Source of the DNA: Cyanidioschyzon merolae
Taxonomy: Eukaryota
Assembly: GCA_000091205.1 (NCBI GenBank)
Contig: AP006484.2
Direction: 5' to 3' (one strand)
Length of the DNA: 64,000 nucleotides
Every line of letters begins with the position of its first letter. The first letter of the stretch is position 1. The position numbers and the translations under genes are program-made. The notes beneath the pieces were generated by a model. The model was given only the letters and a program-made list of their open reading frames with translations, was not told the origin of the DNA and did no database searches. This document shows, piece after piece, positions 12,831 through 59,879 of this stretch.

Positions 12831-13125
12831 GCGCTCCAGTTGCCTTGAACTACAAAGATCTTAATCTTGAAGAATCTCTGATTTGGGCATGATACATGTA
12901 CGGAAGGCAGAATAGTCGAGGCCTGCACACATCTATGTCAGTGAAACAAGAACGCTTTACGAGCATGGAGGGAAAATATATATTCACTCACAGAGGCCTT
13001 CGAATCTTCTTCAACCGGCGGCCTGCTTTCTGTTTCAGCTTCTCCTGACTCACTTCGAGCTTCAGAGGCTGCCCCATAAGATTGGATCGCGTAAGCTCAT
13101 CGGGTCTCGTCTCCAGCACCGCATA

Positions 13126-32722: not shown

Positions 32723-34612
32723 ATGCATTTGGTGAAGGAGGTGTATCGCGACGTGACGAACAGCACAACAGCCGAGGTTCCCGAAGAATTTTCGAACAAG
32801 ACCATCATCTGCCACCTGTTGCTTGGCGCCGGGGAAAAGTCGAGGAGAAGCGAGCGATTACATGCCCTCCACGACAAATACACCAAGTACCGCTCCAGCG
32901 GTAATCTATACAGGGGAGACTTGCGTATTTATGAATACGGAGCGATGAAGTACCTCACGAATCTGAAGCACCATATGATCGTGAACCTCGAATGTTTCAT
33001 GACAAGCGACGTGTTTGCACAATGCCCGGGCCTCTCTCCTGAGGAAAGAGATGGGCCATCATCGACAGCATCACAAACGATTGTCGCGATGAACAGGAGA
33101 TTGAATTTGTCGACGGGCAGACATCACGCAGGAGAAAGAATGAAGCTTCTGTAATGCATTCGGTTGTACAAGAGAACCGTGCGGTTCTGGGGCTGGCGAA
33201 TCCAGCGGAAAATGTATTAGATGTAAAAAAGATAAAAATAGATTTTATCCCCTCATCTTGCGCTATTTCGCGTTTTTGGACCTAGAACCCGAACACAAAG
33301 CGGAGATGGAGCTGGTGGTGAGAAAAAATGAAGAGTCGCAGAAACGGAGGGCTTTCCTACTGAAGAAGCGCTTCGATGTTGTTGCGATATTCAAGATCAA
33401 GTGGCTCTTTGTGACAATCGACTCCAGCATCCTTCATGCCGTCATGAAGGAGACCAGTCGAGAGTTCGACGTGAGCAAATAGGAAATCACGGGTGAAAAC
33501 CGGGAGACTCATTGGAAGAAATTTTTCGATTTCAAACGTCTCAACAGGAGCAAGAAAAAGGTACTCTCGGGGATGATCGAAAGCGATGGGGTATCGATAT
33601 CTGTACACTATAGGCGCTTGAGGGCGGATCGTCCTGTTCCATCTTTGTTGTCGTCCTCGGCGAAGCATGAATATAAGAAGGATATAGATCCTGCGACGCA
33701 CGAGGTGCATGAGAACGACTGTGTCGTCGGAATCGACTGAGGGAACACGAATATTATCACCATCGCTGCATCTAGTTGTGGGGAAAATGATATCAACGAC
33801 AACTTACGGCGGAAAGGCGTGCAACTTTTAAATTACTAGAGAGCGAGATACTACCGGGAATCTGGGATAATCAATGCGAGGAAAAAAGTGAGACATGGAA
33901 TGCATGAGTGAAAGAGCACCTAGAAGCGATCAGCAAGGTGACGAGCAGCGGAGCGGACTCGCAAGCTTTTTGGGGATTCGTGAAAGTTCGCGCTGCTCAT
34001 TGGGAGGTGCTATGGAAAGAATATACAAAGCCCCGGTTGGCTTATCCACAGATGAAGCTGCACTGTGGGAAGCAGCGTGCATTCGACAACTTCTTCGATG
34101 AATTGAGCGCCCTCAAAGAGGAAAAGAGTCAGAGGTTCATAGTAGCTTATCGAGCAGGACGCTGGGTATTCGGAAAAGGGTTTTCACCCGCTCCACCCGC
34201 ATGAATGTACAAGGAGTGCGCATACCGTATTGCCACGACACCAATGGAAGAATTCCGAACGTCATACACACACCACGAGTCGGGGTGTGCATTCCAGCGG
34301 GTCGAGATGGAAAAGTGTCAGAGGAGCCCTGCATCCATAGAAAAGTACGGAGCGCTGACGGAAGAGCAAATGGAATAGAGGGCACGATTTAGAGGACTTG
34401 ATGCTTGCGTGAGTACAACCAACGAAAAGAATCAAATGGAGTTTGTGAACCAAGACTTTAATGCCGCTATCAATATAAGGAGATGCGCAGTGCCGGAGAA
34501 CAGACCTGCAGAGCTGATGAGAGAAAATCTTTGTGGGGTAGCCTCTGGGGGTAGAGTTGCACAAGGAGAAGTTGAAACCAGTAGTAGGGGGCTGTCAAAA
34601 AAAGACCGGTAG
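32723..34612 (+). pseudogene. TnpB/Fanzor-like (OMEGA-type RuvC + zinc-finger nuclease) gene, copy A, broken by frameshifts and an in-frame stop; the 5' boundary is uncertain and may reach ~32360
   Basis: The ORF fragments 33258-33482, 33895-34204, 34201-34392 and 34409-34612 are collinear with copies C and D. The RuvC-I-like block DCVVGID*GNTNIITIAA (~33720-33770) has a TGA inside GIDxG. The central block is MKEHLEAISKVTSSGADSQAFW...GKQRAFDNFFDELSALKEEKSQRFIVAY. The RuvC-III block is NQDFNAAINIRRCAVPENRPAELMRENLCG. A basic NLS-like segment KQKKGARRQRLQERRR lies upstream (32360-32689). Confidence 0.55.
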
Positions 34613-35556
34613 GCGTCTGCACATCAGTCGGTAGAAATATATAGTCTATGGCAGTCCGTATGCCACTCGCCACCACATTGCACCGGTTATGCAGCGTATG
34701 CCAATTGAAAGCCATTCGCTTCATATATGTATGCATCGGCACGTATGTATCAAATTGCTATTATTACGTGAAACTTCTGTTGAAGCTGATACGGATTTGC
34801 CAGCGACGAGTGCGCACTGTACGCAGTCTTCATGGGAACTCTGCGTCAATGCTTTGAGCTTCAGAGACATGCAATGCGCTAAGCGTCAGGGGTCTCGCAA
34901 GTACACGATCGAGGAGGTATCCGAGTGTCCACGCTGCATCGCAAGAACGCGATGCGCGACAATGCGGTTCATCTTGCGCTGAAGCACACATAAAAAATGT
35001 TTTCGGAACCAGAACGCGCAAAAGCGCGATCGGTGACCGACCGAAGGTCGTTTCTTACGCATCGAGTAGAGACCAAGACGCTGGATCATAAATTGGACCG
35101 TGGAGGAAAACGCCTCAGTCGAAGATTGACCTACTTCGAATGTCGCACCCGAAATCTGTTCTCCGAGCAGGGGAGCGATGCCTACTCAAAGAGTCTATGG
35201 CGCAGAGCAACGCTGTTTCAACCGAAACAGCGCTGCAGGCAGCGTTGTTGAAAACTGAGGCCGGCAAGGGCGAAGCATTCGAAGAGACACGCATCGCTGT
35301 GCAGCTCAGTGAATCTTTACAGTGACGGGAATCGGAAACTCAGGTTTGCCTGCACGTGCCTCGTTCGGCGACTTGCACTTTGTTCACCGGGAAATGCCCA
35401 TCCAGGCGTGCGCGTCGACCACAGAAAAAGGCGCTTTCCAGACGGCTGCAAAGTCCATGCAGACTCTGTGGGCTTGAACTGCGCGCAACTTCGGGGCTGT
35501 GTAATCTCGGGAGAGTCGGCGATGAAGCGCTCATCAATCGCGCGGTCCAATCGCCG

Positions 35557-38500
35557 TCATGAGCACGTACGCATATCGTTTCTGGTTGCACTCGCAGCAT
35601 CCACAAACGGTACATCCGGATTCAGAAACGGGTGCGCGAGCAACTCGGGGATGCTGGCCCTTCGAACGGGATCCCGCTGCAGACAACGTCGTAGCGTATC
35701 CATGAGCGCTGCGGCCGATGCCTCCGAGCCTATGCCCTGGATCCCAGCCACAGGCGGGTACGCAATGTCGTACGTCGGGTCCGTGATGCAGCGGAGCTTT
35801 TGAATCACGTTCAGGTGTGAGAATGGCGTGCGGCCGTACACCATTTGGTACAGGATGCAGCCGAGTGACCAGATGTCACTGGGGCGTCCCAGCTTGTAGC
35901 GGCGCCGCGAGGGAGCCGCCGCCGTCTCGCCGCTGGCGCCAGCGGAAGCTGCCTCGTTGGTATCCAGAATTGCCTCAGGGGACATGTAGTTCAGGGTACC
36001 CACCTGACTCTCGCGGACAATGTTGGTGGTGTCGTTCTGAATCGCCTTGGCGATGCCAAAGTCAATGAGCTTCAGGACACCCTCAACGAAAAGAAAGTTG
36101 GCTGGCTTGAGGTCGGAGTGCACGATGCGCTCTTCATGAATGGTATGAACCGCTTCCAGCATCTGCTGCCAGTAGAGACGCAGAAAGTTCGCATGCAAGG
36201 GTCGTCCAGCGTTGCGCAGTAACAGCCTCGCGAGGTCAATCTCGCCATACTCCATGACGAGGTAAATGAGACCAGCGTGCTCGCGCACCTCCGAAGCGAT
36301 CAGCTGGATGATATTGTCGCGGCCGCGGAGGCGCTGCAGCAACGCAATCTCGTTGCAGTAGCTCCGGAGCGTCTCGCGATCGGCCTTGCGGATGCGAATG
36401 CGTTTCAGCGCGAAAATCTTCCGGGTTCGCGCGCACATCACCTTGAACACCTTGGAAGATCCCCCACGCCCGACGATTTCTAGCTTGATGTACGGGTATC
36501 CACCAACGTGCACCACAGTGTCGGCGAGGCTTGGCGGTAGGCTCAGCAGGCTCGTGCCGTCACCACCGTCAGATGGAGCCACATTCTCCTTCCCAGCGTC
36601 CAGGCGTCGCAGCGGTCGACGGGGCGCCGCTGCAGCCTCAGCAACTGCCGATCCCTGCACGGCAACAGGGCCGTCGACGGAGCGCTGCATCCCGCGGGGC
36701 TGTTGCGCTGTCGGTGCGTGCGCTTCTCGCGCTGCGGGTGCCACGCACGCACCTGTTCTGATGGACACGTGTCCTGCTGATGCATCGTTTCCCGCGCATC
36801 GTCGCGATTTGCTGTCGATCGGGTTCGATGCCGCGGCAGCCGGGCGCTCATCCGGCGCCGCCTGGGTACCATCAGGCACACCAGCAGGCACATTACGAGA
36901 TATAATGTGAGGCGCTTGACTGGCTTCGGGGTCGCCTTGAGCGCGCTGCATCGGCCAGCGATCGGTCGTCGAGGATTGCCGGGCCGGCACCGCATCCACT
37001 GCGAGTTCGATTGCCTGTGGCGACTGCCGGAGACGCGTCCACGGCGGGGGTGTCGTCGAGGCAGCCGGATCCCGGTCGATGCGCGGTGATGAGAGCGCCG
37101 CCTCTGCACCGCCTGCAGCGTCGAGGGCAGTGCGAGCGCGATGCTCATCGCGAGACGCTTGGTGCGGTGGTGAGAGCGTGGCGCGCTGCTCTGGAGCAGT
37201 CTCCACGGAGCGATGCCAAGACATGGCTGTCGCTGGGGCGTCCTCATCTGGCGGTGGAATGCCGGCACCAGTGCCGGTCGCGGTGCTGAACCCGGTCAGT
37301 GCGGCTGGGTCGAGCGCGGTGGCGAGCCCCGCACCAGATGGTGCCTTGCCAACCCGCGCAGCAGGCTGTAACACATCCGCCGTGATCGTCAGCAGAGAGG
37401 CGGCATCGGGCGCGTCGGCGCTGTGGCCGCTGCTATGGTGCGCGCTGCGCACCACTTCTGGCACGGCGTTTTCAGGGTCCGATGACGCGCACAGCCAGAA
37501 ACACGTGCCGCGCATAAACTGCTCAGCTGCCTCTCGCCGAGCAGCTGCCTCCTCTTCGAGCTTTCGCGCCTTGCGCTCGTTTCCCAATCGCCGCTCGAAA
37601 CGCGCCCATAGCTCGCAGATGCGCGGGTCATGCTCGCCAATGCGCTCTGCTTTCAGGTAGCGAAAAGTATCTCGTAGCTCCTCGGCGTCCTCCTGCTCTG
37701 TGAGTGCCATTTGAAAGCGGACGGCTCCCAGCCAGAGCTCGACATAGTCGCTGTTTCGTCGGTGGCCTCGCGCAGGCACCGCCCGCGTTGCCCGTTCATA
37801 GAGCCGCTGCAGGAGGCGCAACACTGCACGCGCCCTGGCGTCGGTGGTGGGGGTACGCGGTGGCATCCCGCTCGGCAGGAGTGCCCGCTCCAGCGACTGC
37901 AGGAAAGACAGCCAAGTACTCGGACACGACGGCCGCGCGGCGAGTGTCCGCAGGTGCGTGGTGTCGGCACGGGCGAGCGCAGTCTCCAGCGCCTCGAACG
38001 CATATTCCCGATACGCTGGTGGAACCAGAGTCAGAGGCGAGGATCCGAACACCTCGCGGAACGTTGCAGTCCAAGACGCGCTCGGCAACGCGCTCAAGGT
38101 GCGTGGATGCGGCGCTACGGCTGCAGGTGTCTCTGTGCGCTGCGCTTGCGGCGACGTAGCCCCTGGGTCGACTGGTGCCGGTATCAGGTGATCTGCGGCA
38201 TCGCCTCCTGTGCCGACGGCCGCCACAACGTGCAAGCGCAGTAGCGGCGGCGTCATCAGGCCCTCGGCGCTTCGCGTCGGTGAGCACGGCGAGCGCGAAG
38301 CACTGCTGTGCGTCTGCTCCGCCGACTGGCGACGACCTCGAAGCTGCTGAACGCGTAGGCGCAACTTCTCCAGGGTCTCTCGTGTCGGGCGCTTCAGGTG
38401 ACTCGAAGCCGATGTCTCGCTCGTCGCGCTGCTGGCCTGGTCGGGTGCCTGCGCATACGCGTCCGTCGCCACTGCGTCCAGCTGTCCCGCACGGCGGTTT

Positions 38501-38730
38501 AACGCTTGCTTCGACCCCAAAACCCACTTTTCCGAGTCGCTGGCCTCGGGAGTCGCATCACGGCCGCCTGACATGTAGAAATCAAAGCCAAAGCGACGAG
38601 CGGTTGCCGCCTTGCCGGAGCCAGAGCTGCCGCAACGACCTAGAGAGCGACACAAGGGCACTGCTGCTGTGGACGCGGGCCACAGCGCTTCTGCTCCGCC
38701 CCGATAGCGGGCGTTCAAAATTTCGGGCAA
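35557..38730 (-). CDS. MPS1: Mps1/TTK-family dual-specificity protein kinase (spindle-checkpoint kinase), with the kinase domain at the C-terminus
   Basis: YIKLEIVGRGGSSKVFKV...LKRIRIRKADRETLRSYCNEIALLQRL, IVHSDLKPANFLFVEGVLKLIDFGIAKAIQNDTTNIVRESQVGTLNYMSPEAI, DIWSLGCILYQMVYGRTPF and IPELLAHPF match the human TTK kinase domain almost motif for motif. The ORF is 1057 aa, with a long low-complexity Ala/Pro/Arg-rich N-terminal region. Confidence 0.9.
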   Translation of the reverse strand: MPEILNARYRGGAEALWPASTAAVPLCRSLGRCGSSGSGKAATARRFGFDFYMSGGRDATPEASDSEKWVLGSKQALNRRAGQLDAVATDAYAQAPDQASSATSETSASSHLKRPTRETLEKLRLRVQQLRGRRQSAEQTHSSASRSPCSPTRSAEGLMTPPLLRLHVVAAVGTGGDAADHLIPAPVDPGATSPQAQRTETPAAVAPHPRTLSALPSASWTATFREVFGSSPLTLVPPAYREYAFEALETALARADTTHLRTLAARPSCPSTWLSFLQSLERALLPSGMPPRTPTTDARARAVLRLLQRLYERATRAVPARGHRRNSDYVELWLGAVRFQMALTEQEDAEELRDTFRYLKAERIGEHDPRICELWARFERRLGNERKARKLEEEAAARREAAEQFMRGTCFWLCASSDPENAVPEVVRSAHHSSGHSADAPDAASLLTITADVLQPAARVGKAPSGAGLATALDPAALTGFSTATGTGAGIPPPDEDAPATAMSWHRSVETAPEQRATLSPPHQASRDEHRARTALDAAGGAEAALSSPRIDRDPAASTTPPPWTRLRQSPQAIELAVDAVPARQSSTTDRWPMQRAQGDPEASQAPHIISRNVPAGVPDGTQAAPDERPAAAASNPIDSKSRRCAGNDASAGHVSIRTGACVAPAAREAHAPTAQQPRGMQRSVDGPVAVQGSAVAEAAAAPRRPLRRLDAGKENVAPSDGGDGTSLLSLPPSLADTVVHVGGYPYIKLEIVGRGGSSKVFKVMCARTRKIFALKRIRIRKADRETLRSYCNEIALLQRLRGRDNIIQLIASEVREHAGLIYLVMEYGEIDLARLLLRNAGRPLHANFLRLYWQQMLEAVHTIHEERIVHSDLKPANFLFVEGVLKLIDFGIAKAIQNDTTNIVRESQVGTLNYMSPEAILDTNEAASAGASGETAAAPSRRRYKLGRPSDIWSLGCILYQMVYGRTPFSHLNVIQKLRCITDPTYDIAYPPVAGIQGIGSEASAAALMDTLRRCLQRDPVRRASIPELLAHPFLNPDVPFVDAASATRNDMRTCS

Positions 38731-39664
38731 TCGATGCAGGCGCTCACGACATCATGAACATTCTAGAACGTAATTGTACAGAGCAAACATATGCCCGCAG
38801 CGGGACGCGTTCCATCATTCCTGTCCGATATCGCCGATACCGTGCGCGAACACGCCCGGATACCAGCGCACCGACGTGTGCTCCACCGCAGATGCGCTCA
38901 CGCTGTACCGACTCCAGAACGGTTTTTCTTTAAACAACGACAGCTTCGTGGAGCCAGCGACCTGCCGAGTGCCGGACGTTCACCGAACGACACCTCGATT
39001 GCGAACAGGAGGTAGCGCGTACCCCAATAGCCGGTATCCATAGCACGTCACAGCTACCTGTAGGGCGTCGAAGGCGCATCCCTTGGGGGCATACGCACAA
39101 CTGGCAGTACGGATGCACGTATGCATACGGCCGTCGATAGAGGCACGTCGATCACGTCCATTGCATCGAAGGATGGGCCGATCCGTGTACGTGCAGGTAA
39201 CGCGCACATTCTGTACCTTGGGCGAGAGCGCCTCAAAGCGACATGCGCTGGGCGACAGCACGGCGTGTTCGCAGTGTCGTGACTACCACGGATGTGCTTG
39301 CAATGACACCGCGCGACGACTAAAGCGCATCCGCCCAGTTCGCAGCGATTATCCGCAAGCAGCCTCTGATGTCGGCGGGCACCCAAATTTTCGCAAAACG
39401 CGCAATACGTCCTCCAAATCACTGTTGCCTGTTGGCGGCGTCTCGATGGCGACAAGGATGGAACTGGTACGCTTCGATCTGACGGGGCGGATGCATCTGC
39501 CCGGAGACGGAATGCAGGACACCACTGCGGGACCCAGGTCCCGGGCACGCTCTATGGACTTTGTCGAAACACGTGAGCGAACGTCCAGAAATGTTTATTA
39601 AAGTCACACGAGGTGCTGCACAGGTACGCAGCTCGAGGTCGATGCCGCCATGCACGTCTCGTCC

Positions 39665-40387
39665 TCAATCCGAATCCGATGGTGCGTCGCGGGACTCGGC
39701 ATCAGGGTGCAGGCTCACGCCGGTGATCCGGTGCCGCCGAAGCGTTTTCGCAAGGCGCTCCAATGAAAAGCGCACTCCAGCGCGGCCCGCAATGACCCAC
39801 TCGCCCAGACCGGCAAAGGTGCGCACGACCTGTTGGTTCCGGATCAGCAGAATCGATGGTAGGACCTGGACGCCGAGCCGCTCGCACATGGACGGAAACC
39901 GTTCCGCCTCAGCGACCCAAAAGCGCGTCTCCAGATGCTGCTGTGCCAGGGAACGCAACGCGTGTGCGAGCGCATCCTGCAGCGGCTGGGTTTCGGGCGC
40001 TGTTCGCAAACGCCAAAACACGCCAACAACGCGCTCTGAGGATCGGCAGGCCTCGAGGAGCGCCTCCTCGTCATCAAGTTCATGCAGCCTACCATGCCCG
40101 AGCGCGCACCATCGGGAGCGCGCAGCCGCTGCTCGCTTCAGCGCCTCCAGACGACGCTCGCGCAGCGCTTCGAGCTCGGGGTCCGTCTCGGTCGTCGTCG
40201 CAGAAGCGCCGAAAGAGGCGCCGCGCTCCTGCTCCCGAAGCTCCCCGTCCAGGATAGCCTCCACACGCTCGGCAACTGCCTCGACAACACGCTGCACTGC
40301 GCTTTGGGAGCCAGTCGCAGGCTCTTTCCGGGCAAATCCCTGCGTGCCCCCGAGCGCTGCCACACTCGACGACTGCGACGTCGGCAT
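39665..40387 (-). CDS. TXNDC9: thioredoxin-fold phosducin-like protein (TXNDC9 / PhLP3 / Plp1 family)
   Basis: VVGVFWRL...LRSLAQQHLETRFWVAEAERFPSMCERLGVQVLPSILLIRNQQVV parallels human TXNDC9 [35 protein letters not shown]. An acidic coiled N-terminus precedes it. Confidence 0.7.
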   Translation of the reverse strand: MPTSQSSSVAALGGTQGFARKEPATGSQSAVQRVVEAVAERVEAILDGELREQERGASFGASATTTETDPELEALRERRLEALKRAAAARSRWCALGHGRLHELDDEEALLEACRSSERVVGVFWRLRTAPETQPLQDALAHALRSLAQQHLETRFWVAEAERFPSMCERLGVQVLPSILLIRNQQVVRTFAGLGEWVIAGRAGVRFSLERLAKTLRRHRITGVSLHPDAESRDAPSDSD

Positions 40388-41109
40388 GGCTCCAGTTTCG
40401 ACAGCACCTTGGCCGTTGTTGCGTTGCTTCCCACGCCCGAGCGCTGATCAGTGTCAAACAGGCACGCTGTGACACCCTGGTGCTCCGAGCACCAACGCAG
40501 GTACCGCCTACTGGTGCCAGACGATCAAAAAAGTCCCGAGTCACCACACACCGCCCTCTGATCACAGCGCCTGCCTCTAAGCGTCGACGCTGCCTTCTCG
40601 AGTTGCCGGTGTGAGTAGCCCCAAGTTGCCGCTAGAGCACACTCACAAGTCCGTGGAATCCTATAGACGGCGCTCTTACGGGAACACTCCACAGACGCGG
40701 CAGTGATGGCCGTACGCGCGCATCCGCTGCACGTTCGATTTTACCATCGCATGCAGGATGTGCACACTGGGGTGCGGGGTGCCCGCTTCAGAATCGCCCC
40801 TCGCTGGACACGGGCAGAAGATGGCCGTCTGTACACCTAGCGCCGCGGATCTCGGTGTACGCCGTCGAGCGCTGCGCGCCAGTACAGTACAGGTCGCACT
40901 GGGAACGCATCTTGGAGCGAATCAACCTTCTCGTGAGAGCATCTGCATAAAGCTACGTCTTGAGTTTCGTAACCAATTGGTTAAGGCCTCCGCTCAACAG
41001 TCAGCGACAAATCATGCTTTTGCGAGTCCTCCGGAGAATAAGCTGCAGAAAAATATGCACGAACAGCGGCATGATATGCAAAATGGTTCCGCGTGGAAGC
41101 GTTCTTTGA

Positions 41110-44100: not shown

Positions 44101-45069
44101 CCTGAGAAACAGCACCAGGCTTGTCGGTACGTCCGCCTCCAACAGAAGCTCGACTGGAAAACCTTCCAACAGCTTCAACAGAAGCTGAAGCGATGCCCTA
44201 AATGCCGGTCCGGGGTCCGTGAATTCGCAGCGTAACATATGGAGCGCCACAAGAACGATACGGCTGCCTTCCTGCACAAGACGCTCACCGATCGCATCAG
44301 CAGTCAGCTGAACAGTTGCCGCGCCTGCTGACTGACGTATTCCCGTCTCTTCAGCCACTGCGGATAAGATTTCTTCAATTATCGTAGAGAAAATCTCCAT
44401 AGATTCAGCGCTTTCCAGAGGACTTCCGAGCAAATGATCCAGTACCCGAGAACCATAGCTGCTCTCCCAATACTGCACCACAATTCGAGCGAGAAACTGG
44501 GCGACCTTTCTCCGCTCTCCACAAGAAAATGCTCTCTTTCCAGCTGCTAGTGTGCCATGGCAGTGATTCCATAACTCAACTGCAAAAGCGCAGAGCGTCT
44601 GACACATATCCAGGGTGTCCGTACGCGCGCTTAGAGCCTCAGCCTGCGAACGCTCGATAAGGTCGACCAACAGCTGAAACCCATACTGTACAGCGGCCGT
44701 TTCCACTACTCTAGCAAAGTTCGAGTCTGCATCTGGAACAGCAGATCGTGTCAAACTTTCATAGCATAGATTAGCTGCTATGAGGTCCCGTCCCAGCGCG
44801 AAAATCGTGTCTGCGGAGAAAAACTTTGACACATTACAGAGGAACGTATGGGCTTGTCTGCGGCTCTCTCCGGTGCTTTTTCCCCAGTGCAGCACTGCCA
44901 GAGCTGAAACAACTTCCGCCGTAAGATCAGACGCCATTTCCGTTGCAAATCCAGAAATAGTCCCCTTGGCGCTCAGAAGCCACGCAGCCACCACCGCTGT
45001 TCTAAAGTGGAACGACGTCGCGCGCGTACAGTAGTTGCGAGAAGCCCGCCCTAGACCGGACGTCTCCAA
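41110..45069 (-). CDS. large HEAT/ARM-repeat protein, karyopherin-beta (importin/exportin)-like; the start is probably at the internal Met near 44937
   Basis: The ORF is 1319 aa and helical-repeat throughout. An importin-beta N-terminal-like segment (DLTAEVVSALAVLHWGKSTGESRRQAHTFLCNVSKFFSADTIFALGRDLI) resembles the exportin IBN_N pattern. The first ~44 codons of the ORF track entry read through the 3' end of the Fanzor-like copy C, so translation more plausibly starts at MASDLTAEVV. Confidence 0.6.
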   Translation of the reverse strand: METSGLGRASRNYCTRATSFHFRTAVVAAWLLSAKGTISGFATEMASDLTAEVVSALAVLHWGKSTGESRRQAHTFLCNVSKFFSADTIFALGRDLIAANLCYESLTRSAVPDADSNFARVVETAAVQYGFQLLVDLIERSQAEALSARTDTLDMCQTLCAFAVELWNHCHGTLAAGKRAFSCGERRKVAQFLARIVVQYWESSYGSRVLDHLLGSPLESAESMEIFSTIIEEILSAVAEETGIRQSAGAATVQLTADAIGERLVQEGSRIVLVALHMLRCEFTDPGPAFRASLQLLLKLLEGFPVELLLEADVPTSLVLFLRRRFEQMFGDRLVACADYDWLAIEALGCWITRAQPMLPKQRDVLGSLLETLISFVICFDEAYTGDVGLLIDAPIRWEERLSLLQAVIELTFLAFESTLTHLQERPAIWSSFILLLGRLVSHPWASIAELALAFCCRDQVLKTVLTAQCVVVLLDAAWMRCCMDTSLPAYLFTGKDIVENSVLDANDPRWRLMSFVLSRNAEQPKLNSSLRSRTRDFLRKICQNWRDACLDWVVTRAVDRMDCHRNRRSTGPVMEQFCFREEPAHLHSFWRGLLSVRNGQYPSDAESALFIEMLLDETREVMFFTMSEVLAPLLPSLGRGSGVSKPPGVSKTSSRGASSEVGGEENARLTQVLQLGERVEFVLSMVDTLDLDQDANKIHMILHVFFGCAPLLARIEGAQIRTIQAALRVLERIQQLPCTEHARWSAMGLHRREKWFDALCRGILALLLRSEGSETVSGAQVLLPSIQQALREAPMPFPARCSLLKCVPVIVCSLDSPEKSIPVLNALLEETLGIWKTMALQHEVLRDPERFLIAFLAPSADADTNRTCLLQLLTLFEQMLSVSMKHSIWKQTVMFGELLPTTLPQMVAALNHLFSLRPDGRGDISVLAPSRIEIAQWYRLVMEWMLRAGLLPEAIADSRQHRKELLKTRRSFIHISARGLLLFQRMLALDPDPDALKFYREICLRGIPQVDIEYLALIVRHVMKTLLQCEAQAHQGSDIWETDVTEIWLPLLRATAERIGQLAYEEVSDEESSTMDEVLHGAPHANEASSANEAFDQAAVALVELAVAMLKLESCSRRVQLFNWARDFLRKCLDWHFESASRKAFAFLRKHLSFWIHPAEGYLAIDTESLLQLENSIARALTDERWYSRPEDVRKVHAAVNDELYRRGFSPACFTTSELPSKHPNASMFPGENGGERMRALGNVAVRRSFNHGASTQLNEAAMAFPSSKMASQKHRPLSVRLLQSWKKRTQLYTMDLEDESINGDDDTALEGVAVLFG

Positions 45070-46072
45070 CTGATGTGCAGACGCCTCCCAGTGCTTTTGA
45101 AGCGGCCACCCACTACTGCTTCCAACTGTTTCTCATATAGTTCAACTTTTAGAGGTTGTCCAACAAAGTTCTCTTGTGTAAGCTCTGGAGGTCTTCTCTC
45201 CAGCACCGCACAATTCCTTATATTGGTTGCGGCGTTAAAATCTCGATCCACGAGCTCCATCCGTTTCTTGCCATCACTCCCTGTACTTACCAATGCAAGT
45301 AGCCCATGAACTTTCGCTCTCCTTTCCATTTGCCCCTCCGTCAGCGGTCCATACTTTTCTACATCCTCAGGGCTCCTCTGGCACTTTTCTATCTCCACCC
45401 TCAGGAGTGTACAGCCCAGCTCGTGGTGTGTGTAGGACGTTCGAAACTCATCTACAGGTATCGCAACAAAACGTCTTGCGCACTCATTGCACGTTCTTGT
45501 TGACGGAACTGATGTACACCCTGTTTGGGTCTTCCATTGCCCTACTCCGTACGCTACTACGAGTCTCTGACTTTCATCCTCCTTAAGGGCACTCAACTGA
45601 TTGAAAAAGTTGGCAAATGCCCGCTGCTTCCCACAGTACAGAATCATACGCAGACGAATCCATCGATTCCTTGTATACTCCTCCCACAGCGCATCACAAT
45701 GCGCAATGTGAACTTCCATAAACTCCCGAAAAAAGCTTTAAAGTCCGCTCCTCGGCTCGTCACCTCGCTCATAGCTTCCAGGTGCTCTTTCACTCCTGCA
45801 TTCCACATCTCAATTTTCTTCCTCGCATTCATGATTTCCGATTCTCGATAGTATCTTGCTCTCGAGAATCTCAACAGGCGCATGTCTTTCTGACGTAAGT
45901 TGCAGTTCGTACCATCTTCCGCGCGCGTGGGTACTGCGATGGTTATGATATATGTGTTCCCGGGCTCTGCACCAACGACAAAGTCGTTATCTGGCACCTC
46001 CTGCGTCGCGGGACCCGCCTCCTTCTCATGTTCATGACTCGCCGCACCAACGACGAAATCGTTCTTCTGCAC
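45051..46072 (-). pseudogene. TnpB/Fanzor-like nuclease gene, copy C (N-terminally truncated; the C-terminal 222 aa are still one ORF)
   Basis: The minus ORF 45051-45719 has a zinc-finger/RuvC-III tail (TCNECARRFVAIPVDEFRTSYTHHELGCTL...MELVDRDFNAATNIRNCAVLERRPPELTQENFVGQP). The upstream ORF 45644-46072 has a duplicated RuvC-I-like block (DFVVGAEPGNTYIITIAV) in which the Asp of GIDxG reads Glu. Confidence 0.6.
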
Positions 46073-46167
46073 TTTCTGCGTCGTAGGATCCGCCTCCTTC
46101 TCATCTACACGCTTCGTCGCGGGCGAAGCCGAATGCAGACCAGAAGGCGAGCCCTACCGCGCAGGAG

Positions 46168-47097
46168 GTGCAGAAGAACGATTTCGTCGTTGATGCGAAC
46201 CCCGGGAACACGAATATCATACCCATCGCAGCACCCAAGTATAGGGAAGATGCTAACACCGGCAACTTACGTCAGAAAGACATGCGTTTGGTGAAGCCCT
46301 CAAGGGCTAGATATTACCGAGAATCGGGAATCATGAATGCATGGAAGAAAATTGAGACGTGAAACGCAGGAATGAAAGAGCACCTAGAAGCTATGAGCGA
46401 GAAGACGCGCCGAGGAGCGGACTTTCGGGCTTTTCTGAAATTCATGGAAGTTTGTGTTGCTCATTGGAAGGCGCTGTGGGAAGAATATACAAAGCCCCGG
46501 TGGGCCCGTCTGCGTATGAACTCGTACAGTGGGAAGCAGCATGCATTCGCGAACTTTTTCAATCAGTTTAGCGCTCTCAAGGAGAATGAAAGTCAGAGGC
46601 TCGTAGTAGCATACGAAGCATAGAGCTCGGCGTCGAAAAAAGGGTGTAGGCGATCTCCAACGACAAGAACGTACAAAGAGTGCGCATGCCGTTTCGTCAC
46701 GATACCGATAGATGAGTTCCGAGCGTCGTATACAAACCACAAATTGGGGTGCACGCTTCAGAGGGTCGAGATGGCAAAGTGCCAGCGGAGCCCTGAGGAT
46801 ATGAAAAAGTACAGAGGGCCGACGGAAGAGCAAATGGAAAGGAGGGCGAGACTTCGAGGATGGCTTGCACTAGTGAGTTCAACTACCAATGGCGAGAAAC
46901 GCATGGAGTATGTGAACCGAGATTTTAATGCCGCTATCAATATAAGGAGATGTGCGGTGATAGAAAGAAGACCACCAGAGTTGGCACGAGAGAATTTCGT
47001 GGGGCAACCTTTCAAAGTGGGACTATATGAGAAACAGTTTGAACCAGTTGTGAGTGAGCGGTACAAAAAGACTGGGAGGCGTCTGCTCATCAATTAG
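46168..47097 (+). pseudogene. TnpB/Fanzor-like nuclease gene, copy D (head-to-head with copy C; frameshifted)
   Basis: 46168-46362 has RuvC-I-like FVVDANPGNTNIIPIAA, where the Asp position reads Asn. 46372-46623 has MKEHLEAMSEKTRRGADFRAF...GKQHAFANFFNQFSALKENESQRLVVAYEA. 46744-47097 has FVTIPIDEFRASYTNHKLGCTLQRVEMAKCQRSPED...MEYVNRDFNAAINIRRCAVIERRPPELARENFVGQP. Confidence 0.6.
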
Positions 47098-47144
47098 ATA
47101 TAGCTTGTTCCGGTCGGGTTTCCCGCCGCTACTGTGTACTGCCG

Positions 47145-50100
47145 GTGACGTTCGACTTTCGAACAGCGTTCGTTGTCGTGGGTGGTTTTCGTGAGTGCAA
47201 AATGGCTTTTTGCGATTTGAGTGTCTTCACGACGGAACTGTCGTGCGCTACAGGTAATGCACGTCTTCGCAGTCGCCAGGCAACCCTGTTCACCTTGAAG
47301 GGTCGCGTTCACAGGACTGCGTCGGATCTTCGCAGGACTCACAAAATCAGTCGTTTGGTGAGCATGAACGTTAGCGAAACACTCACAAGCACCAAAGCTG
47401 TTCAAAATTTGGAGCCATTAGGCACCAAAGAGAGCGTCCTGGATGCTGCAGTCTCGGCGAAAAAAGTCCAAGCTCCGGGCACCGCAGCACTTTACTTTGC
47501 TTACGGCAGCAATATGTGCCCCCGAGTACTGGGACCCGACACTGATCTTCTCTATTTGTTGCGACGAATATCGTCGTCGTCCTGGGAAACCGGAGAGCCG
47601 GCCGTACTGGAAGGGTTCAGCCTTGAGTTCAGCTGCCCTGGCGTGGAAGCCCTCGGAGAACCAGCATTCGCCAACATTGTGCCTGCCGTCGAGGCCAATT
47701 CTGGTGCACCCCGTGAGCAGTATGATACAGAGGTTCACGGTGTTTTGTTTCGATTGACACAAGCAGAATTAGACCGCATCCTATTATCGGAAGGGGTCGG
47801 GTTAGGGCGCCAGCGCGTCGTCAACGTCACAGTACGCACCTACCGCAACGTACTCTATGAAAATGTCAAGACAGTCGCGTATGTATCATGGGAGATACGG
47901 AATCCACAAAAGCCCTCGTCACGTTACCTCGAGCTCATCCTGGAAGGCGCTAATTACTTTCACTTGGATATTCGGTATGTTCGAACGCTTCTGCGCAAGG
48001 CCTCCGGTGAGTACACCTCTGCCGCGCTCCCAGCCACGAATAATATTCAGAGCGACATGGTGAAAATGCTTCAGGACATACAGGTTCCCCAACAGATTGT
48101 GGCGTTTTATCAAGAAATGCACCACCTCAAGGGAACGGTTCGATTCATCATGCCTCCGATGCTTGACGAGAGCTCACGGGCGACTAGGCCGCTGTTGCTG
48201 TTCTTCCCCGGCCTAGATGGCACTGGCATCAGTATTGCTACACAGCTTAGAATGTTTCAGTCAAAATATGATGTTCGCATTTTGGTGATTCCTCGGGACA
48301 ACCGAATGCCGCTGGATGAATTAGGGAACACAATTCTGGATTGTTTGGAGTGCCTCTGGAAACAAAAGACAGAGGTACTGATGTCGAAAGAGGTATCGCA
48401 CGAGCCTCAGGTTGCACCGGATGTTCTCGCTGAGAGCATGGGCTGCTTATTGTGGTTTGAGTGTGTAAGAGCTTTTCGCAGACGAGCGAATCTCAAATGC
48501 GGCGCTGTTGACCCCTGCGAAAGCCCTACTCGCGCTCTGGCAAGGCACGTCATGCTGGTGAACCCAGCAACTAGTTTCAGCAAATCAGCTCTCGCTCCAG
48601 TTTGGGAAAATATCTCTGCATTACCCGACCCCGTTTACCACGTTGCTCCGTACATATTTAGCCCTATTCTGATCGATCTGCTCCAGCTTTTGGCAGAGCC
48701 CAGTATGGCGTTTCAGTCACTCCAGCGAATGGGTGTCCTCCGCGAAATCTTGCCCAAGGAGACGCTCCGTCATCGGGTGCGACTCATTCGCGACTTTCGC
48801 TATGCAGCCGATGACTTTGCGGCTGCAGCAGAGTACGGTGCTGAGCAATACACAATCGCAGTTGCAGCGAATGATGCTCTGCTGCCCTCTCTAGCAGAAT
48901 CAGAGAGTCTCCTTGGAAAGCTTACGCTGCCTTTTCTCGAAATTCAAAAAACGGGGGTCCGGAGGATGAGTAGCCTTCCTGCTACTGTTGTTCGGTACGT
49001 TGCAACTCAAGGTGGGCACGCGCTGCTCCAGTCGGGGAGCTTCGATGCTTACCAGCAGCTCATGGTTAAGGCTGAACGCGCACATGATCGCATTCGAAGA
49101 GGTCTTTTGGAACGAATACCCAAAGCTGCGAAAGATTCACATACCCGTTCGTCTCCGAGCCAGCATACAACGGACGTCACCGACAAAACAATGGGCTCAG
49201 GTTTCGTAACTGAAACCCTCGACAACGACCAAACACTTGTTGCCAGGTCGCCAACAAATGGACAGCTGGATCGATATGCGATACGGCAGAGGACTGGCTC
49301 GTCCGTGCGGGATTCAACCACGGGCTCACGGTTTTTCCCGAGGAACAAGTTCGCGCTCGGCGAGACGCGGTGGCAGCTTCAACGACAGAGGCGTCTGCTT
49401 TCGCCAATTTTTCTGGATTTCGACAAGGTACCCTTATCATCATCAACGCGTCCGGTTCTGTTTGTTGGAAATCATACCCGTTTGGGGCTCATCGATTTAC
49501 CATTTCTGATTGACCAAGTCTGGAAGAGCCGGGGTGTATTCGTGCGGGGTCTGGCACATCCCATTATATTCGCGATGCAGCAGCGGGGTCAGTCTCAATG
49601 GGAAAGTGCGGGAGATCGGCAGCGCACGCGAGCCCGCGACTTTGCGACGAATCTCGCTGCACTAGGCGCTGTATCTGTATCACCGCGAACGGTTTACAGT
49701 CTCCTTCGGAACGGCGACTCTTTATTGCTTTTCCCAGGCGGCGCCCGTGAAGCATATAAGAGACGTGGCGAAAATAATCAAATTTTTTGGCCGAAGGATG
49801 AAGAGTTTGTGAGACTTTGTGCACGCCTCGATGCTGTTATTGTGCCTTTTGCCTCTTTTGGCCCTGATGACAGCTTCGACGTCGTGGCGGACGGAGAAGA
49901 ACTCTTGAACGTACCTTTTCTGGGCGGCTTTATTCGCAATCAGTTTGAAAGAATGGGTGTTCGCGCTGATATTGTGCGTGCTTGGCGCTCGCCGCTTTCC
50001 GAGCAGCCCTCTGATGCGGCGATCGCAGACCTGTTGATCCCGCTGCTGCGACCGCGGCCGCCACTGCGACTCTACTTCCAGTTTTTCGATCCGGTATATC

Positions 50101-50324: not shown

Positions 50325-53300
50325 TGCTTACAAGTTGCTTGAAAGGAACGTCAGCATGTGGCGCTCCCAAGATAGCTTCCTTCTCGGGCATCGGCGGCGA
50401 TGCACCTCATTTTCTCTCCGGAAATCGGATACCCACTGGAAGCGGGCATTGCGGCGCCGTTTCATATGCGCTTGCACAGGTGCAAGCGCGGCGACTTGTG
50501 TGCAGGCACAATATGCTGCCGTGCACGCACGTGCACGCTTGCATCTGTTCTTTCTGAGGCTGAAGGACGTTGACATGAACCAGGGATACTCCATGGTGCG
50601 CTTGATATCGACGTGCTCGCCTCGATGAACAGCCGCACACCGCTCTGATCTGCAGGCGGGCACGTTGCGCATCGAAGCATGCTCATCGCTCAGTAATGTC
50701 GATTGATGGAGCGTGGTTATCGGTTACGAATTTCCACGGAAAACAGTACTCGGTTGGACTGCAAGGCGCTTTAGCGTCACAGGAATGCTGACCGTACTTT
50801 ACATGTACTCTGCACCTGGTGGTGTACATCCATTGCTCTCTCTCCTCGCAGCCGCGTCGTCCAGGTGGAGACCTCAGCGTTTTAGCTCAATGCCGACACT
50901 GTGTAGTAAATGATCATTTTGAAAAGTTGCTCAACACAAAGCCGCCGGGCGCTCCGGAACAACAGCACATTACCGTGTTGATTGAATCGTTTACAGCTCG
51001 ATGGCGAAAATGGTTGCAAGCATCGTTTCAGGGGGAATCACACCATGGCGAGCAGCTCGCAGTCGATATTCTCGCCACACGACAATTGATCAGCTTATCG
51101 TACACCACTTAGAGCAGCCGTATCTGTTAATGACGCATCTGCTCTACCAGTTTTTGCGCACACCGGCGTGCGTAATGCATGTTTATCGTCCTGAACGCAT
51201 CGATGGGAATCGTACAGGATAGATTCTTGCATTCGTTGTACGCTCTCGTCGAGGACCTAGAGCGCAACGCTTACGACCTGCAGTACGTTCAGCGCCATAG
51301 GCTAACACCAAGCGACGCAAGCTATCGGTCATTCCTTTTTCCATATCATTGAACGATCTGGTTGATGCTTGCTACAGTGCAAACGGAACCGTCGGCTACC
51401 AGAGCGCTATCATGTCCACCTGTCAGGGATAATCCGCAGTAGCCACCACAACTCTTGTCTCCTGCTTCCGAATGAATCGTATAAAAGCATGTGACTCTGC
51501 TCGATTCGGCGCTGAGCGTGTCGAACTGAGTTCTAATGTCGTCATGCAGCGTTTCGGGACGCCTCATGACAACCATCATGCCCAGCTCCCTATGAGACCG
51601 TGCCCTGGAAAGTTGAGCCGCTCCATCTTGTTTCCGTTCGGGTTATGGTTTCGTCGTTTTAATTAAGAGTTATAGGGACCGCTCCAATGTCCTGGATCCC
51701 AGGATCTTCGCCCATAAGGAAGTCTTTCTCTTCATTTAAAGTGAGTGGTTGCGAACAAGCATGGTTGCTTGACTCAGGTCTAGGTTCCACGAATGGCTTG
51801 CAGACTGGTTTTACTTCGGTCTCGATGATATCTGTGAGATTCGTTCCATTTCCTCCATGGACACGTGAAATCCTGAAGGAGCTTCGCCAATGCTCTTCGT
51901 GAAGTTGGTCGAACGCCTCGTAGTCGTTCGCTGAGACCAGCTCATCCTTCGACTTCTCCTTTACTTGGCCGAATAGTATGAAAGTAGCCACCATACTCTG
52001 CATCTGTTTTTTCCTAGTGACTCATACGTTCTCGGAGGGAGATGGGGCTGAATCTCATCTTCTCCACGCAAGTATTTCATGTTCATTAAGCATCCTTTCG
52101 AAACCTTCTACGTCGCGAGGGGGCGCACGCACCGGAGCGGGTCTCTCCGCTCCCTGCCGCGCACGAGCAGAGAAGAAACAAAGCAGTTTAGGGTTGGTGA
52201 AAGTAGTAGAGTTCAAGTCGTCAAAGAATGATTTGCGGAAGAACGTTGGAATGGTTGCGAACTATTCTTTTATGGGCCCGTGAGCTTAGAGATAGCTTTC
52301 GACATCAACGCAGACACTCTCGACAGTAATTGGGAGAACGTACTTGCACAAAGAGCAGGTCGACGCCACTAGCAGCTGCGTTCTGCTTGACCGCTTATGA
52401 ACAGTAGAAGTTGTCGCTGTCAAAGGTTATGATAGAGGAGCATGGGATGAGGAAGCCATGAAGAGCTTCACAGAAGGATGAAGCATCTAGTGATGTCGAT
52501 TGTTTCACGATCTGGAGGCCACATCACGATTAAATTGCCGCTGGTGCTGATATTGTCGGTATTGCGAGCTTATTGCTCATTTTTGAATACTGGTTTGGCC
52601 CATTTTCAGTACTCATGTACAGGTCTACCATTCTTGCCGCCAAAAGTCTCATCGGGTGAGAGGAGCACCATTCCATCTCGCATGAGGCGTTCGCATTTCA
52701 GAAGGATATGCTTCGTGTGTTGCTCAACACGACGCAGTCTCCAAGACAAACATGTTTTTCATCTTTGCATCTCCGCGGCTCACCAGCACAGTTCTAAATA
52801 AAGGCACGGAAACTTGGTATCCTGTGGCAACTTTGGCAAAGTATCCTTCAGAGGAAATGGAGTGGAAGGGAATGGTGAGGATACTGTCTTACAGGTAGAG
52901 TTTGATAGGTTCTGTTTGCGGTGCACGATGTCCATGATAAGGACTGCGAGAAAGAGCAAGAAAACTCACCTGGCAGGCAAACTTGACTGAATTGCACAAG
53001 TAATGCTGCTCTGTTGCGAGCCAGCAGTAACATCCCAAAGTCGTTCCAAACCGTCCAGCAATCCGTAGGACACATACGTGCCGTCAAATACCTGCGATGA
53101 AGACAACCAAATATGTTCGTACTGGCGCAGGCGTTCCGGAATGCACTGCCATGACTGTAAGGCACGTGCACAGCATCCTGCACAAACAACATGGTAAGCA
53201 TAAAATGGAACCGTTTCACTAACTGAAGTGAACACTGCAAAGTTTGTTCCTCGTCCAGCTGCCGGCAACATCAGCCTTTGCTGACCTTTTCCATAATTGT

Positions 53301-59570: not shown

Positions 59571-59879
59571 GCCAAGGTACATTCCGTCTTTCTTCCGCAA
59601 GTCCTTCTCCCCCGGGAAGGTCCTCACGTAAGAGTAGAAAGAAGTGCGTTCATTGTAAAGAAACAAAAACCCGAGGAAAAGTATTGAGAAGCAAGTCGGG
59701 GATCCCGGAGGCTTGGTGTCGCCGGATTTCCACAAAAAAAAATGTGAAAATCCTCTCCTCGCCGACCATCGAGCGAAGAAGAGCGAGTGACGAAGAGGAA
59801 GAAGAAATGTATTGGGGGATATGCAAGAAAAGATGTTTGTCCAACGGTACGATGACGAGACTGTAATGGCACAGAGGGC

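Follow-up and report, generated by a model that had tools for sequence, protein, structure and literature searches.

In characterised Fanzor/TnpB systems, the 3′ end of the element encodes an outward-reading ω-RNA. Fanzor1 structures have been solved for the Fz1 proteins of Parasitella parasitica (9cf0), Spizellomyces punctatus (8gkh), and Guillardia theta (9cer). The CMe-1A family of Cyanidioschyzon merolae was described in 2013, with ~150 copies that match a ~3-kb consensus at ~80% identity each and that lack TIRs and a defined TSD (Bao & Jurka, Mobile DNA 4:12; PMC3627910). Here, we analysed a window of 64,000 nt that matches C. merolae 10D chromosome 2 in GenBank. Positions 44988-47178 of the window constitute a 2.2-kb quasi-palindrome with ~75% complementary arms, and both arms are 5′-truncated copies of one transposon family (arm C on the minus strand and arm D on the plus strand). 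This family shares with CMe-1A the C. merolae host, the multi-copy state, and a TnpB/Fanzor-like protein with D-E-D motifs. Judged by host, copy divergence, length, and Fanzor1 coding fit, the arms belong to CMe-1A, an assignment made by the published description and not by alignment to the consensus. The CMe-1A paper (PMC3627910) does not contain the present locus, a head-to-head pair, the intrinsic 75-nt coding array, or a position preference relative to genes. The locus represents a known transposon family and not a new kind of system.

A sequence-only reading of the window had recognised the arms as Fanzor relics, and this identification was upheld by 67 to 80% protein identity to a family whose wider profile matches the solved Fanzor1 structures. 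A profile built from 41 relatives, among them protein P0119 of the C. merolae element, matched 9cf0 (E = 2.3e-20), 8gkh (8.2e-11), and 9cer (1.1e-6), while single-sequence and narrow-family profile searches did not reach Fanzor1 structures. The homology is at the profile level and covers the REC-to-RuvC region, with the family and the characterised proteins aligning at DPG(R/N) (RuvC-I), DEFRT(S/T) (RuvC-II), and RD.NAA.N (RuvC-III). None of the RuvC D-E-D residues (D484, E656, and D725 in P0119) varies across the 41-sequence alignment. Neither the relic ORFs nor the family proteins from C. merolae gave a Pfam match to a TnpB-type domain (OrfB_Zn_ribbon or Cas12f1-like TNB) or to any other model; PF07282 matched one distant relative at E = 0.0023 and 18.5 bits, below the cut-off of 26.3, and the precomputed annotation of family proteins listed only DUF8286. 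Family copies are ~77 to 85% alike in pairwise comparison, and the element has a length of ~2.75 to 3 kb (at least 2.75 kb); hot-spring metagenomes contain 265 close relatives. Its ORF carries two to six 25-aa units of the form KHEEKKEAxPATQEVxDNDFVVGA N-terminal to RuvC-I, and its ~130-nt conserved 3′ terminus, where an ω-RNA would be encoded, showed no covariation in RNAalifold and only sub-threshold generic hairpin matches in Rfam.

Unlike the characterised Fanzor1 proteins, arms C and D are dead. Both lack ~1.6 kb of 5′ sequence and with it the N-terminal half of the protein, and the RuvC-I Asp is mutated in each (Table 1). Arm C contains one frameshift, which splits the coding region into ORFs at 45644-46072 and 45051-45719; arm D has stayed in one reading frame, which is interrupted by stops at 46360 and 46621 ahead of the normal stop at 47095. 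The arms are relics of Fanzor1 members that encode nothing functional. Relative to a near-full-length element (L083), blastn identity was 81.5% for arm C (46121-44988 against reference positions 2697-3825) and 78.1% for arm D (46161-47163 against 2814-3813), and the conceptual protein of arm C was 78 to 80% identical to family members. A 28-nt stretch of arm C is a probable conversion tract.

Comparison of the locus with its own reverse complement confirmed an inverted similarity far above chance level: blastn aligned 44995-47168 over 2,190 nt with 75.0% identity (E = 0). A repeat search resolved two pairs of inverted arms, 44990-45732/46431-47173 (743 nt, 75% complementary) and 45731-46023/46142-46434 (293 nt, 80% complementary), and the longest perfect run between the arms was 25 nt. 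The copies had been described as facing each other across ~95 bp; this gap is absent, as an ungapped symmetry scan placed the axis on base 46120 with no true spacer and with 41 of the 60 flanking pairs complementary. Positions 46072 and 46168, which had been taken as copy ends, are both ORF ends. The symmetry centre coincides with the motif at the boundary between 75-nt repeat units (…TTCGTCGTTGGTGCGGCGAAGC…), a partly self-complementary sequence. As single-stranded DNA, 46020-46220 folded into a central hairpin of −58.9 kcal/mol (z = −9.7), and strong folding was confined to the central ~150 nt of the palindrome.

The head-to-head arrangement with equivalent truncation points just upstream of RuvC-I, which had also been proposed, held for both copies, and the two inner ends lie within an array of 75-nt tandem repeats that belongs to the family ORF itself. 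Arm C carries two repeat units and arm D carries one, and the arm lengths differ by exactly one 75-nt unit. The single unit of arm D (D-1) is 81% identical to unit C-2 and 76% identical to unit C-1. All other copies with a visible 5′ part (L083, L086, L087, L089, and copy B) reach at least reference position 1076-1088 and are longer, so arms C and D were secondarily truncated; the contigs of L084 and L095 start within the element. At the outer side, both arms end at the canonical 3′ terminus of the element, where independent copies elsewhere stop aligning, and the outer ~65 to 80 nt past each stop codon are common to copies at unrelated loci. Each arm therefore possesses its own complete 3′ terminus, and terminus alignment with copies at other loci revealed no duplicated host flank in the arms. 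With a looser terminal motif, arm C may reach ~44974 and arm D ~47191. Several other family copies share the position and orientation of the arms relative to start codons.

Table 1. Coordinates of the features of the quasi-palindrome and its borders (positions refer to the window)
Feature	Position	Strand	Evidence or remark
Non-element leader of CMB066C	44938..44987	-	50 nt; ~36 nt if the looser terminal motif is element
Arm C, dead 5′-truncated Fanzor1 (CMe-1A), 3′ ~1.13 kb	44988..46119	-	blastn, protein identity, terminus alignment
Non-coding 3′ terminus of arm C	44988..45050	-	conserved block …CTACTGTAC…CGTTCCACTTTAGAACAGCGGTGGTGG; common to copies at unrelated loci
RuvC-III motif of arm C, DRDFNAA	45228-45248	-	translation
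RuvC-II motif of arm C, VDEFRTS	45435..45455	-	translation, 41-sequence alignment
RuvC-I motif of arm C, VVGAEPGNT	45953..45979	-	Asp of consensus GADPGNT changed to Glu
Two 75-nt repeat units of arm C	45969-46043 and 46044-46118 (45969..46118)	-	repeat search, family alignment
Symmetry centre, GCTTCG-TCGCGGG-CGAAGC	46111..46129	.	symmetry scan, sequence, central hairpin fold
Arm D, dead 5′-truncated Fanzor1 (CMe-1A) copy	46121..47178	+	blastn, translation, terminus alignment
Single 75-nt repeat unit of arm D	46122..46196	+	pairs across the axis with the distal arm C unit, 84% complementary
RuvC-I motif of arm D, VVDANPGNT	46186..46212	+	catalytic Asp changed to Asn
RuvC-II motif of arm D, IDEFRAS	46708..46728	+	translation, 41-sequence alignment
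RuvC-III motif of arm D, NRDFNAA	46915-46935	+	translation, 41-sequence alignment
Non-coding 3′ terminus of arm D	47098..47178	+	…CTACTGTGT…CGTTCGACTTTCGAACAGCGTTCGTTG; terminus alignment
Non-element leader of the BAM78883.1 gene	47179..47201	+	23 nt; ~10 nt if the looser terminal motif is element

The arms take up essentially the whole spacer of a divergent gene pair, as had been suggested, and their outward ends lie close to the two start codons. In GenBank, the minus-strand gene CMB066C (BAM78882.1, 1,275 aa) starts with the ATG at 44937 (44937-44935), and the gene for the plus-strand protein BAM78883.1 (1,040 aa) starts with the ATG at 47202. The gene 5′ ends originally placed at 45069 (TTG) and 47145 (GTG) are artefacts of an ORF listing that allowed alternative start codons. 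The prediction that CMB066C really starts at Met 44937 agreed with the GenBank record and with outgroup orthologues, which align from residue 4-5 of CMB066C. Similarly, the 5′ extension of the long minus-strand ORF had been interpreted as read-through of the arm C terminus, and the codons from 45069 to ~44988 are indeed element sequence. The non-coding 3′ terminus of arm C falls within this spurious extension, and GTG 47145 lies within the arm D terminus, where it begins a spurious extension of the plus-strand ORF.

The divergent gene pair is kept at the outgroup loci L090 (Cyanidiococcus) and L091/L092, with ATGs ~200 nt apart and no Fanzor match within ±10 kb of the pair; the insertion is therefore lineage-specific. 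Three wild haplotypes (L001, L081, and L082; 99.1 to 99.5% identical) all carry the same structure as the window. Among the four haplotypes, the palindrome differs only by SNPs and one 3-nt indel at 46097-46099, and SNPs and indels occur directly beside the symmetry axis. No intermediate state with a single or double full-length copy at the locus was found, and the databases contained no lineage between 99% and 57% identity. The related genomes gave no sign of instability of the palindrome. Like other palindromes formed by transposon pairs, the locus has its exact symmetry axis in a short self-complementary motif, and its middle part folds strongly when single-stranded; here, however, the arms are 75% alike with short perfect runs, and rearranged alleles are absent from the four haplotypes. 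A hairpin- or cruciform-driven rearrangement hotspot, as put forward before, is not upheld in that form, and the evidence for one is weak. Given the arm divergence and the 25-nt limit of perfect pairing, the palindrome is unlikely to extrude a cruciform along its full length today.

The sequence-only reading also implied an inverted duplication. If an old decayed relic beside one gene had been copied in inverted orientation long after its insertion, the head-to-head geometry and the equivalent truncation points would follow directly; yet arms C and D are 76.0% identical and no closer to each other than to unrelated, young copies (79 to 82% for C and ~77% for D). Changes exclusive to C and D were found at only 5 of 904 DNA sites, with 20 common to D and B and 8 common to C and B. 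At the protein level, C and D shared 4 derived residues of 305, a count equal to that for C-B and D-B. The repeat also lacks host flank, and we regard such a late duplication as highly improbable. The comparisons indicate that the arms are not sister copies; they speak against duplication of an aged copy and mildly favour two separate insertions. Relative to the young-copy consensus, arm D had accumulated 119 private changes vs 71 in arm C (p = 0.0006; range, 0.0006 to 0.013), an excess concentrated at both arm ends and not significant in the middle 540 columns (42 vs 52). Quartet bootstraps supported (C,young | D,B) at 62 to 99% and (C,D | …) at 0 to 20%. Both D and B are long-branched, and long-branch attraction could inflate their grouping; conversion, as in the 28-nt tract, could make C appear younger. 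In a three-taxon p-distance comparison with copy B alone, identities were 75% (C-D), 72% (C-B), and 73% (D-B), with roughly equal C and D branch lengths.

We tentatively favour, at somewhat less than an even chance, a history in which two independent sense-oriented CMe-1A insertions came first, a hairpin-mediated deletion then removed the centre, and the remainder decayed neutrally. Two copies would have inserted separately into the ~200-nt bidirectional spacer of CMB066C and the BAM78883.1 gene in the C. merolae lineage, each landing or surviving with its 3′ end toward the adjacent start codon, a few tens of nucleotides away. A deletion would then have shortened the long head-to-head pair by taking out the 5′ half of each copy together with whatever host DNA separated them; its endpoints would lie in the two inverted 75-nt arrays, where the units meet in the self-complementary motif CTTCG…CGAAG. 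This motif is the sole place where the inverted arrays share direct microhomology, and the base of a hairpin would join them there; such an event would explain both the spacer-less axis and the one-unit difference in arm length. Hairpin-mediated central deletions of long inverted repeats are established in studies of palindrome instability in bacteria, yeast, and mammals, and the locus may illustrate how a long inverted transposon pair is stabilised. This history requires three events, two insertions in one ~200-nt spacer and a symmetric deletion, and a single event making both arms is more parsimonious by event count. One 5′-truncated copy could have become a palindromic dimer at or near insertion, through fold-back (snap-back) synthesis or template switching at the unit-boundary hairpin or through integration of a pre-formed head-to-head dimer, and the arms would have decayed independently, with a 75-nt unit gained or lost. 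An exact spacer-less axis within a short natural inverted repeat is what a fold-back inverted duplication classically leaves behind, the scarcity of exclusive C and D changes fits duplication before decay, the similar branch lengths with copy B point the same way, and only one insertion in the 200-nt target is required. However, both outer ends are the canonical terminus, where a fold-back copy of chromosomal DNA need not stop, and no flank was duplicated. Arm D is more diverged than arm C from the young-copy consensus, the quartets place C with young copies and D with old copy B, which suggests different source sequences, the one-unit arm difference requires an extra event anyway, and no further palindromic dimer was found among 9 copies in ~150 kb of C. 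merolae sequence. On balance, we consider a one-step origin possible, if on the unlikely side.

After the deletion proposed in the two-insertion history, both arms would have decayed essentially neutrally. The SNP density of the arms (16 to 21 per kb) is at the level of neighbouring non-coding DNA (23.5 per kb) and twice that of coding DNA (8 to 9 per kb), which argues against selection having kept the palindrome as a functional unit, such as a bidirectional regulatory module, an insulator, or a hairpin RNA or DNA structure. A selected unit would fit its presence in all four haplotypes, the still strongly folding centre, and its place as the sole DNA upstream of two conserved genes; the short non-element leaders (Table 1) also contained no variable site among the four haplotypes, though only ~1.5 were expected. 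The arms have nevertheless diverged by 25% from each other, indels and SNPs lie immediately beside the axis, the outgroups manage with ~200 nt and no such element, and neither the sub-threshold Rfam hits nor the covariation-free 3′ terminus points to a conserved structure. Such selection is quite unlikely in our assessment.

It is well known in general that host genes can take their promoters and 5′ leaders from transposons. The present locus resembles such cases in that the element ends lie directly against the ATGs of two intact, conserved genes, where they have taken over most of the ancestral ~200-nt spacer. Only ~50 and 24 nt (possibly 36 and 10 nt) upstream of the two ATGs are non-element, compared to ~200 nt in total in the outgroups; it is therefore plausible that both host promoters and 5′ UTRs are transposon-derived, as had been proposed. 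The 3′-terminal sequences of the arms make up almost all DNA directly upstream of both ATGs and would thus provide the bulk of the promoter and leader sequence of the two genes. The finding is a modest one, a nucleotide-resolution view of how a known Fanzor1 family may have reshaped the ~200-bp promoter region shared by two divergent genes in a very compact eukaryotic genome. C. merolae can be transformed by homologous recombination.

In 5 of the 9 independent copies, a host ATG of the same sense follows the element 3′ end at a distance of ~7 to 115 nt. Three of the nine were not a blind choice (C and D constitute the finding, and L084 was picked for its read-through ORF); without these three, the count is 2 of 6 (p ~0.03 under a rough null of 3 to 5%). 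More speculatively, CMe-1A might be preferentially inserted or retained with its 3′ end less than ~100 nt upstream of same-sense host ATGs, where it would supply promoter and leader, and the palindrome would then represent a double occupancy of a bidirectional promoter trimmed via a hairpin. We hold this wider proposal to be doubtful. If true, it would make a Fanzor family a systematic promoter donor in a eukaryotic genome that ranks among the most compact, and a genome-wide location of 3′ ends upstream of same-sense ATGs would bear on Fanzor target choice or promoter donation. The use of a self-complementary motif within a coding tandem repeat as a palindrome junction could likewise matter more if it held genome-wide.

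Exact look-ups placed the window on chromosome 2 (457,013 bp) of Cyanidioschyzon merolae 10D. An extended inverted similarity between two relics, arm C and arm D, had been claimed and was confirmed: blastn of 44995-47168 against the reverse complement of this stretch gave a 2190-nt alignment with 75.0% identity (E = 0). In an ungapped symmetry scan the axis fell on base 46120, and 41 of the 60 flanking pairs were complementary. Since the axis sits on this base, within the central motif GCTTCG-TCGCGGG-CGAAGC, no real spacer separates the arms; the gap of ~95 bp described in the sequence-only reading was an artefact of ORF boundaries. The structure is real and well defined, and it is built from already known elements. 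Its supposed role as a rearrangement hotspot found little support: the longest perfect complementary run between the arms is 25 nt, and strong folding of single-stranded DNA was limited to the central 201 nt (-58.9 kcal/mol, z = -9.7). An Rfam search returned generic hairpin matches only, all of them sub-threshold.

Coordinates of the palindrome, the flanking genes and related features (window positions, except for loci L084-L089, which lie in other sequences)
Feature	Position	Strand	Details
Arm C	44988-46119	minus	3' end upstream of host ATG at 44937
Arm D	46121-47178	plus	3' end upstream of host ATG at 47202
Inverted-repeat pair	44990-45732/46431-47173		743 nt, 75% complementary (repeat search)
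Adjoining inverted-repeat pair	45731-46023/46142-46434		293 nt, 80% complementary (repeat search)
Tandem duplication	45969-46118		75 nt (repeat search)
CMB066C (BAM78882.1, 1275 aa)	ATG 44937	minus	GenBank look-up
Gene of BAM78883.1 (1040 aa)	ATG 47202	plus	GenBank look-up
Copy B, heavily decayed, apparently full-length CMe-1A Fanzor1	32179-34700	plus	~71% identical to other copies; many stops and frameshifts
MPS1-like kinase gene (BAM78880.1)	35557-38574	minus	
Weak Fanzor-like fragment	12991-13296	minus	tblastn
Weak Fanzor-like fragment	26086-26641	plus	tblastn
Weak Fanzor-like fragment	27362-27559	minus	tblastn
Weak Fanzor-like fragment	51142-51353	minus	tblastn
Weak Fanzor-like fragment	59857-60114	plus	tblastn
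Region of CMe-1A 3' end and host ATG, L084	2564-2690		
Region of CMe-1A 3' end and host ATG, L087	3467-3514		
Region of CMe-1A 3' end and host ATG, L089	11108-11264		
Region of CMe-1A 3' end and host ATG, L086	11670-12197		

Both arms are dead copies of the known CMe-1A Fanzor1 family, which has been reported from C. merolae with ~150 copies that are ~80% identical to a ~3-kb consensus, no TIRs and an undefined TSD (Bao & Jurka 2013, PMC3627910). That the arms are Fanzor relics was borne out by RuvC-like motifs in their conceptual translations and by the match of a family profile to solved Fanzor1 structures. The motifs read VVGAEPGNT, VDEFRTS and DRDFNAA in arm C (one frameshift) and VVDANPGNT, IDEFRAS and NRDFNAA in arm D (two in-frame stops). 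Searching for homologues of the three window copies recovered 265 close relatives, all metagenomic and the longest of 752 aa, and an exhaustive profile search gave 1,387 relatives, many of them of 600-700 aa. The D, E and D residues at the three RuvC motifs were invariant in an alignment of 41 relatives. The diverse 41-sequence profile matched the Fanzor1 proteins of Parasitella parasitica (9cf0, E = 2.3e-20), Spizellomyces punctatus (8gkh, 8.2e-11) and Guillardia theta (9cer, 1.1e-6). A PDB match was obtained only with this profile; searches with a single relic ORF, a 752-aa family member or a narrow family profile returned nothing relevant. No TnpB/Fanzor domain was detected by a Pfam scan of the relic ORFs and family proteins, and one distant relative gave a sub-threshold match only. 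An AlphaFold2 model of the protein P0119, built from a shallow alignment, was too poor for use of the fold (mean pLDDT 31.5). The element 3' terminus was screened for conserved structure of the omega-RNA type, and neither covariation nor an Rfam family was found.

Directly N-terminal to RuvC-I, the family ORF carries a variable array of ~2-6 copies of an acidic 75-nt (25-aa) unit (KHEEKKEAxPATQEVxDNDFVVGA; alignment A2 of proteins P0112-P0144), the boundaries of which are partly self-complementary. Both arms end inward within this array, arm C with two units and arm D with one (46122-46196), and their lengths differ by exactly 75 nt. The units are mutually 76-81% alike; unit-specific signatures were sought, and an anchor worked in one copy only. 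Relative to L083, a near-full-length copy used as reference (ref), arm C corresponds to ref 2697-3825 (window 46121 to 44988) and arm D to ref 2814-3813. Because every other copy with a visible 5' part (L083, L086, L087, L089 and B) reaches ref ~1076-1088, the truncation is atypical of the family, and a LINE-like tendency to 5' truncation was ruled out. The 5' flanks of three copies (L086 ~8940-8998, L087 ~936-996 and window ~32120-32179) were found to be alike (…AAATTGTTAT.TCGTTGC…AGTCTCTG…TAG). This likeness precedes the point from which they resemble the L083 copy, so the true 5' end of the element lies further upstream than in the L083-based reference, consistent with the published ~3-kb consensus.

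At the outer end, copies at unrelated loci resemble arm C up to ~44988-44992, and the similarity between the arms stops there too. Since independent copies cease to align at this point, the ~65-80 nt following the stop codons are element terminus, and a duplicated host flank was ruled out as the source of the ~70 nt of inter-arm similarity past the stop codons. A looser common motif, GTGG·TYTTYC, suggests that the element could end 10-15 nt further out.

The sequence-only reading had proposed a search for polymorphism of the palindrome in related genomes. Three wild haplotypes from metagenomes (L001, L081 and L082) carry it, with L001 being 99.5% identical over 17.7 kb and L081 and L082 99.1%. 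Further afield, the plus-strand gene has orthologues in Cyanidiococcus yangmingshanensis (57% identity), another lineage (54%) and Cyanidium caldarium (45%). The Cyanidium locus is rearranged; in the two former lineages the CMB066C orthologue is the divergent neighbour, the start codons are ~200 nt apart, and no Fanzor similarity was found within +/-10 kb. Because these outgroups keep a divergent spacer of ~200 nt without Fanzor, the comparison argues that the palindrome arose by insertion within the C. merolae lineage, in a bidirectional spacer that was ancestrally very small. Across the four haplotypes, SNP density per kb was 21.2 in arm C, 16.1 in arm D, 23.5 in neighbouring non-coding DNA and 8-9 in the coding regions of the two genes; the arms thus evolve about neutrally, given their resemblance to the non-coding DNA. 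Polymorphism beside the symmetry axis comprised a 3-nt deletion in L082 (46097-46099) and three SNPs in L081 (46182-46186). Within arm C, 10D differed from all three wild haplotypes at 11 positions in 28 nt (45075-45102). The 10D allele is consensus-like there and equals arm D over a 16-nt run (ACTGGGAGGCGTCTGC), and the patch resembles a short tract of gene conversion, perhaps from arm to arm, or else clustered mutation.

The origin of the arms was approached by comparing ~1 kb of DNA from eight copies. Arms C and D were 76.0% identical, while five young copies were 79-82% identical to C and ~77% to D, with B at ~71%. Duplication of an already aged relic, one form of the inverted duplication that the sequence-only reading implied, is excluded by the low C-D identity and by the small number of non-consensus alleles exclusive to C and D (five). 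At the protein level, C and D had 4 of 305 comparable sites in common as derived residues, and C-B and D-B likewise had 4 each. When measured against the young-copy consensus, private changes numbered 119 in D and 71 in C (p = 0.0006); the excess in D held across consensus thresholds and after CpG removal, and the excess D changes were clustered at the arm ends. Twenty non-consensus alleles were common to D and B where C had the young allele, versus eight for the reverse pattern, and quartet bootstraps gave 62-99% for (C,young | D,B) and 0-20% for groupings of C with D. These comparisons moderately favor two insertions from different source sequences, of which D would be the older; caveats are long-branch effects and gene conversion, such as the patch at 45075-45102 may reflect.

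We prefer a course in which two insertions were followed by a central deletion between two inverted 75-nt arrays, which would have left the spacer-less axis. The main rival is fold-back synthesis, which accounts for the same axis in a single event; an exact, spacer-less axis within a self-complementary motif would fit a hairpin-mediated process. Both outer ends coincide with the canonical element terminus, which speaks against fold-back copying of chromosomal DNA.

The positions 45069 and 47145, given in the sequence-only reading as the 5' limits of the two genes, are ORF limits produced by TTG/GTG extensions, and the annotated start codons lie at 44937 and 47202. In Pfam searches, CMB066C matched Xpo1 weakly, and AIG2_2 and acyltransferase domains were assigned to BAM78883.1. 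Non-element DNA upstream of the two ATGs amounts to at most ~50 nt (44937) and ~24 nt (47202). From this geometry, the element termini putatively constitute most of the present promoter and leader sequence of both genes. A literature search for C. merolae transcription start site data and Fanzor insertion preferences found nothing usable. The locus is an instructive but ordinary example of transposon relics that appear to have remodelled a bidirectional promoter, and it offers one testable lead.

This lead, not yet a result, is a possible preference in the position and orientation of element 3' ends. In five of nine independent copies (L084, L087, L089 and both arms), a same-sense host ATG follows the 3' end after ~7-115 nt; in L086 it follows after ~520 nt, and the pattern is not seen in B, L083 and L095. 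With the chance rate taken as 3-5%, a rough null from window gene spacing, leaving out the three non-blindly chosen of the five gave two of six copies (p about 0.03). The JGI gene call P0126 runs across the element terminus and on into the host gene. Just past the terminus, ATGTCTTCC or a close variant recurs (L087 3500-3525, L084 ~2686 and L086 ~11690) and in two of the three copies supplies the first residues (Met-Ser-Ser) of the host protein as called; it may reflect chance, belong to the element terminus or mark a preferred target.

Elsewhere in the window, copy B and the MPS1 kinase gene converge, and the region at 32-35 kb combines low GC with a strong GC/AT skew. The five weak Fanzor-like fragments, with 30-45% amino acid identity to copy C, may be either much older relics or members of a second, more divergent Fanzor family, and transposon debris seems to make up most of the gene-poor stretches of the window. 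The block at 36000-41000 is GC-rich (61-67% GC versus 47-58% elsewhere in the window). The kinase BAM78880.1 shares a 90%-identity cluster with a paralogue encoded on the same chromosome (BAM78916.1, 1006 aa), and a recent segmental duplication is suggested.
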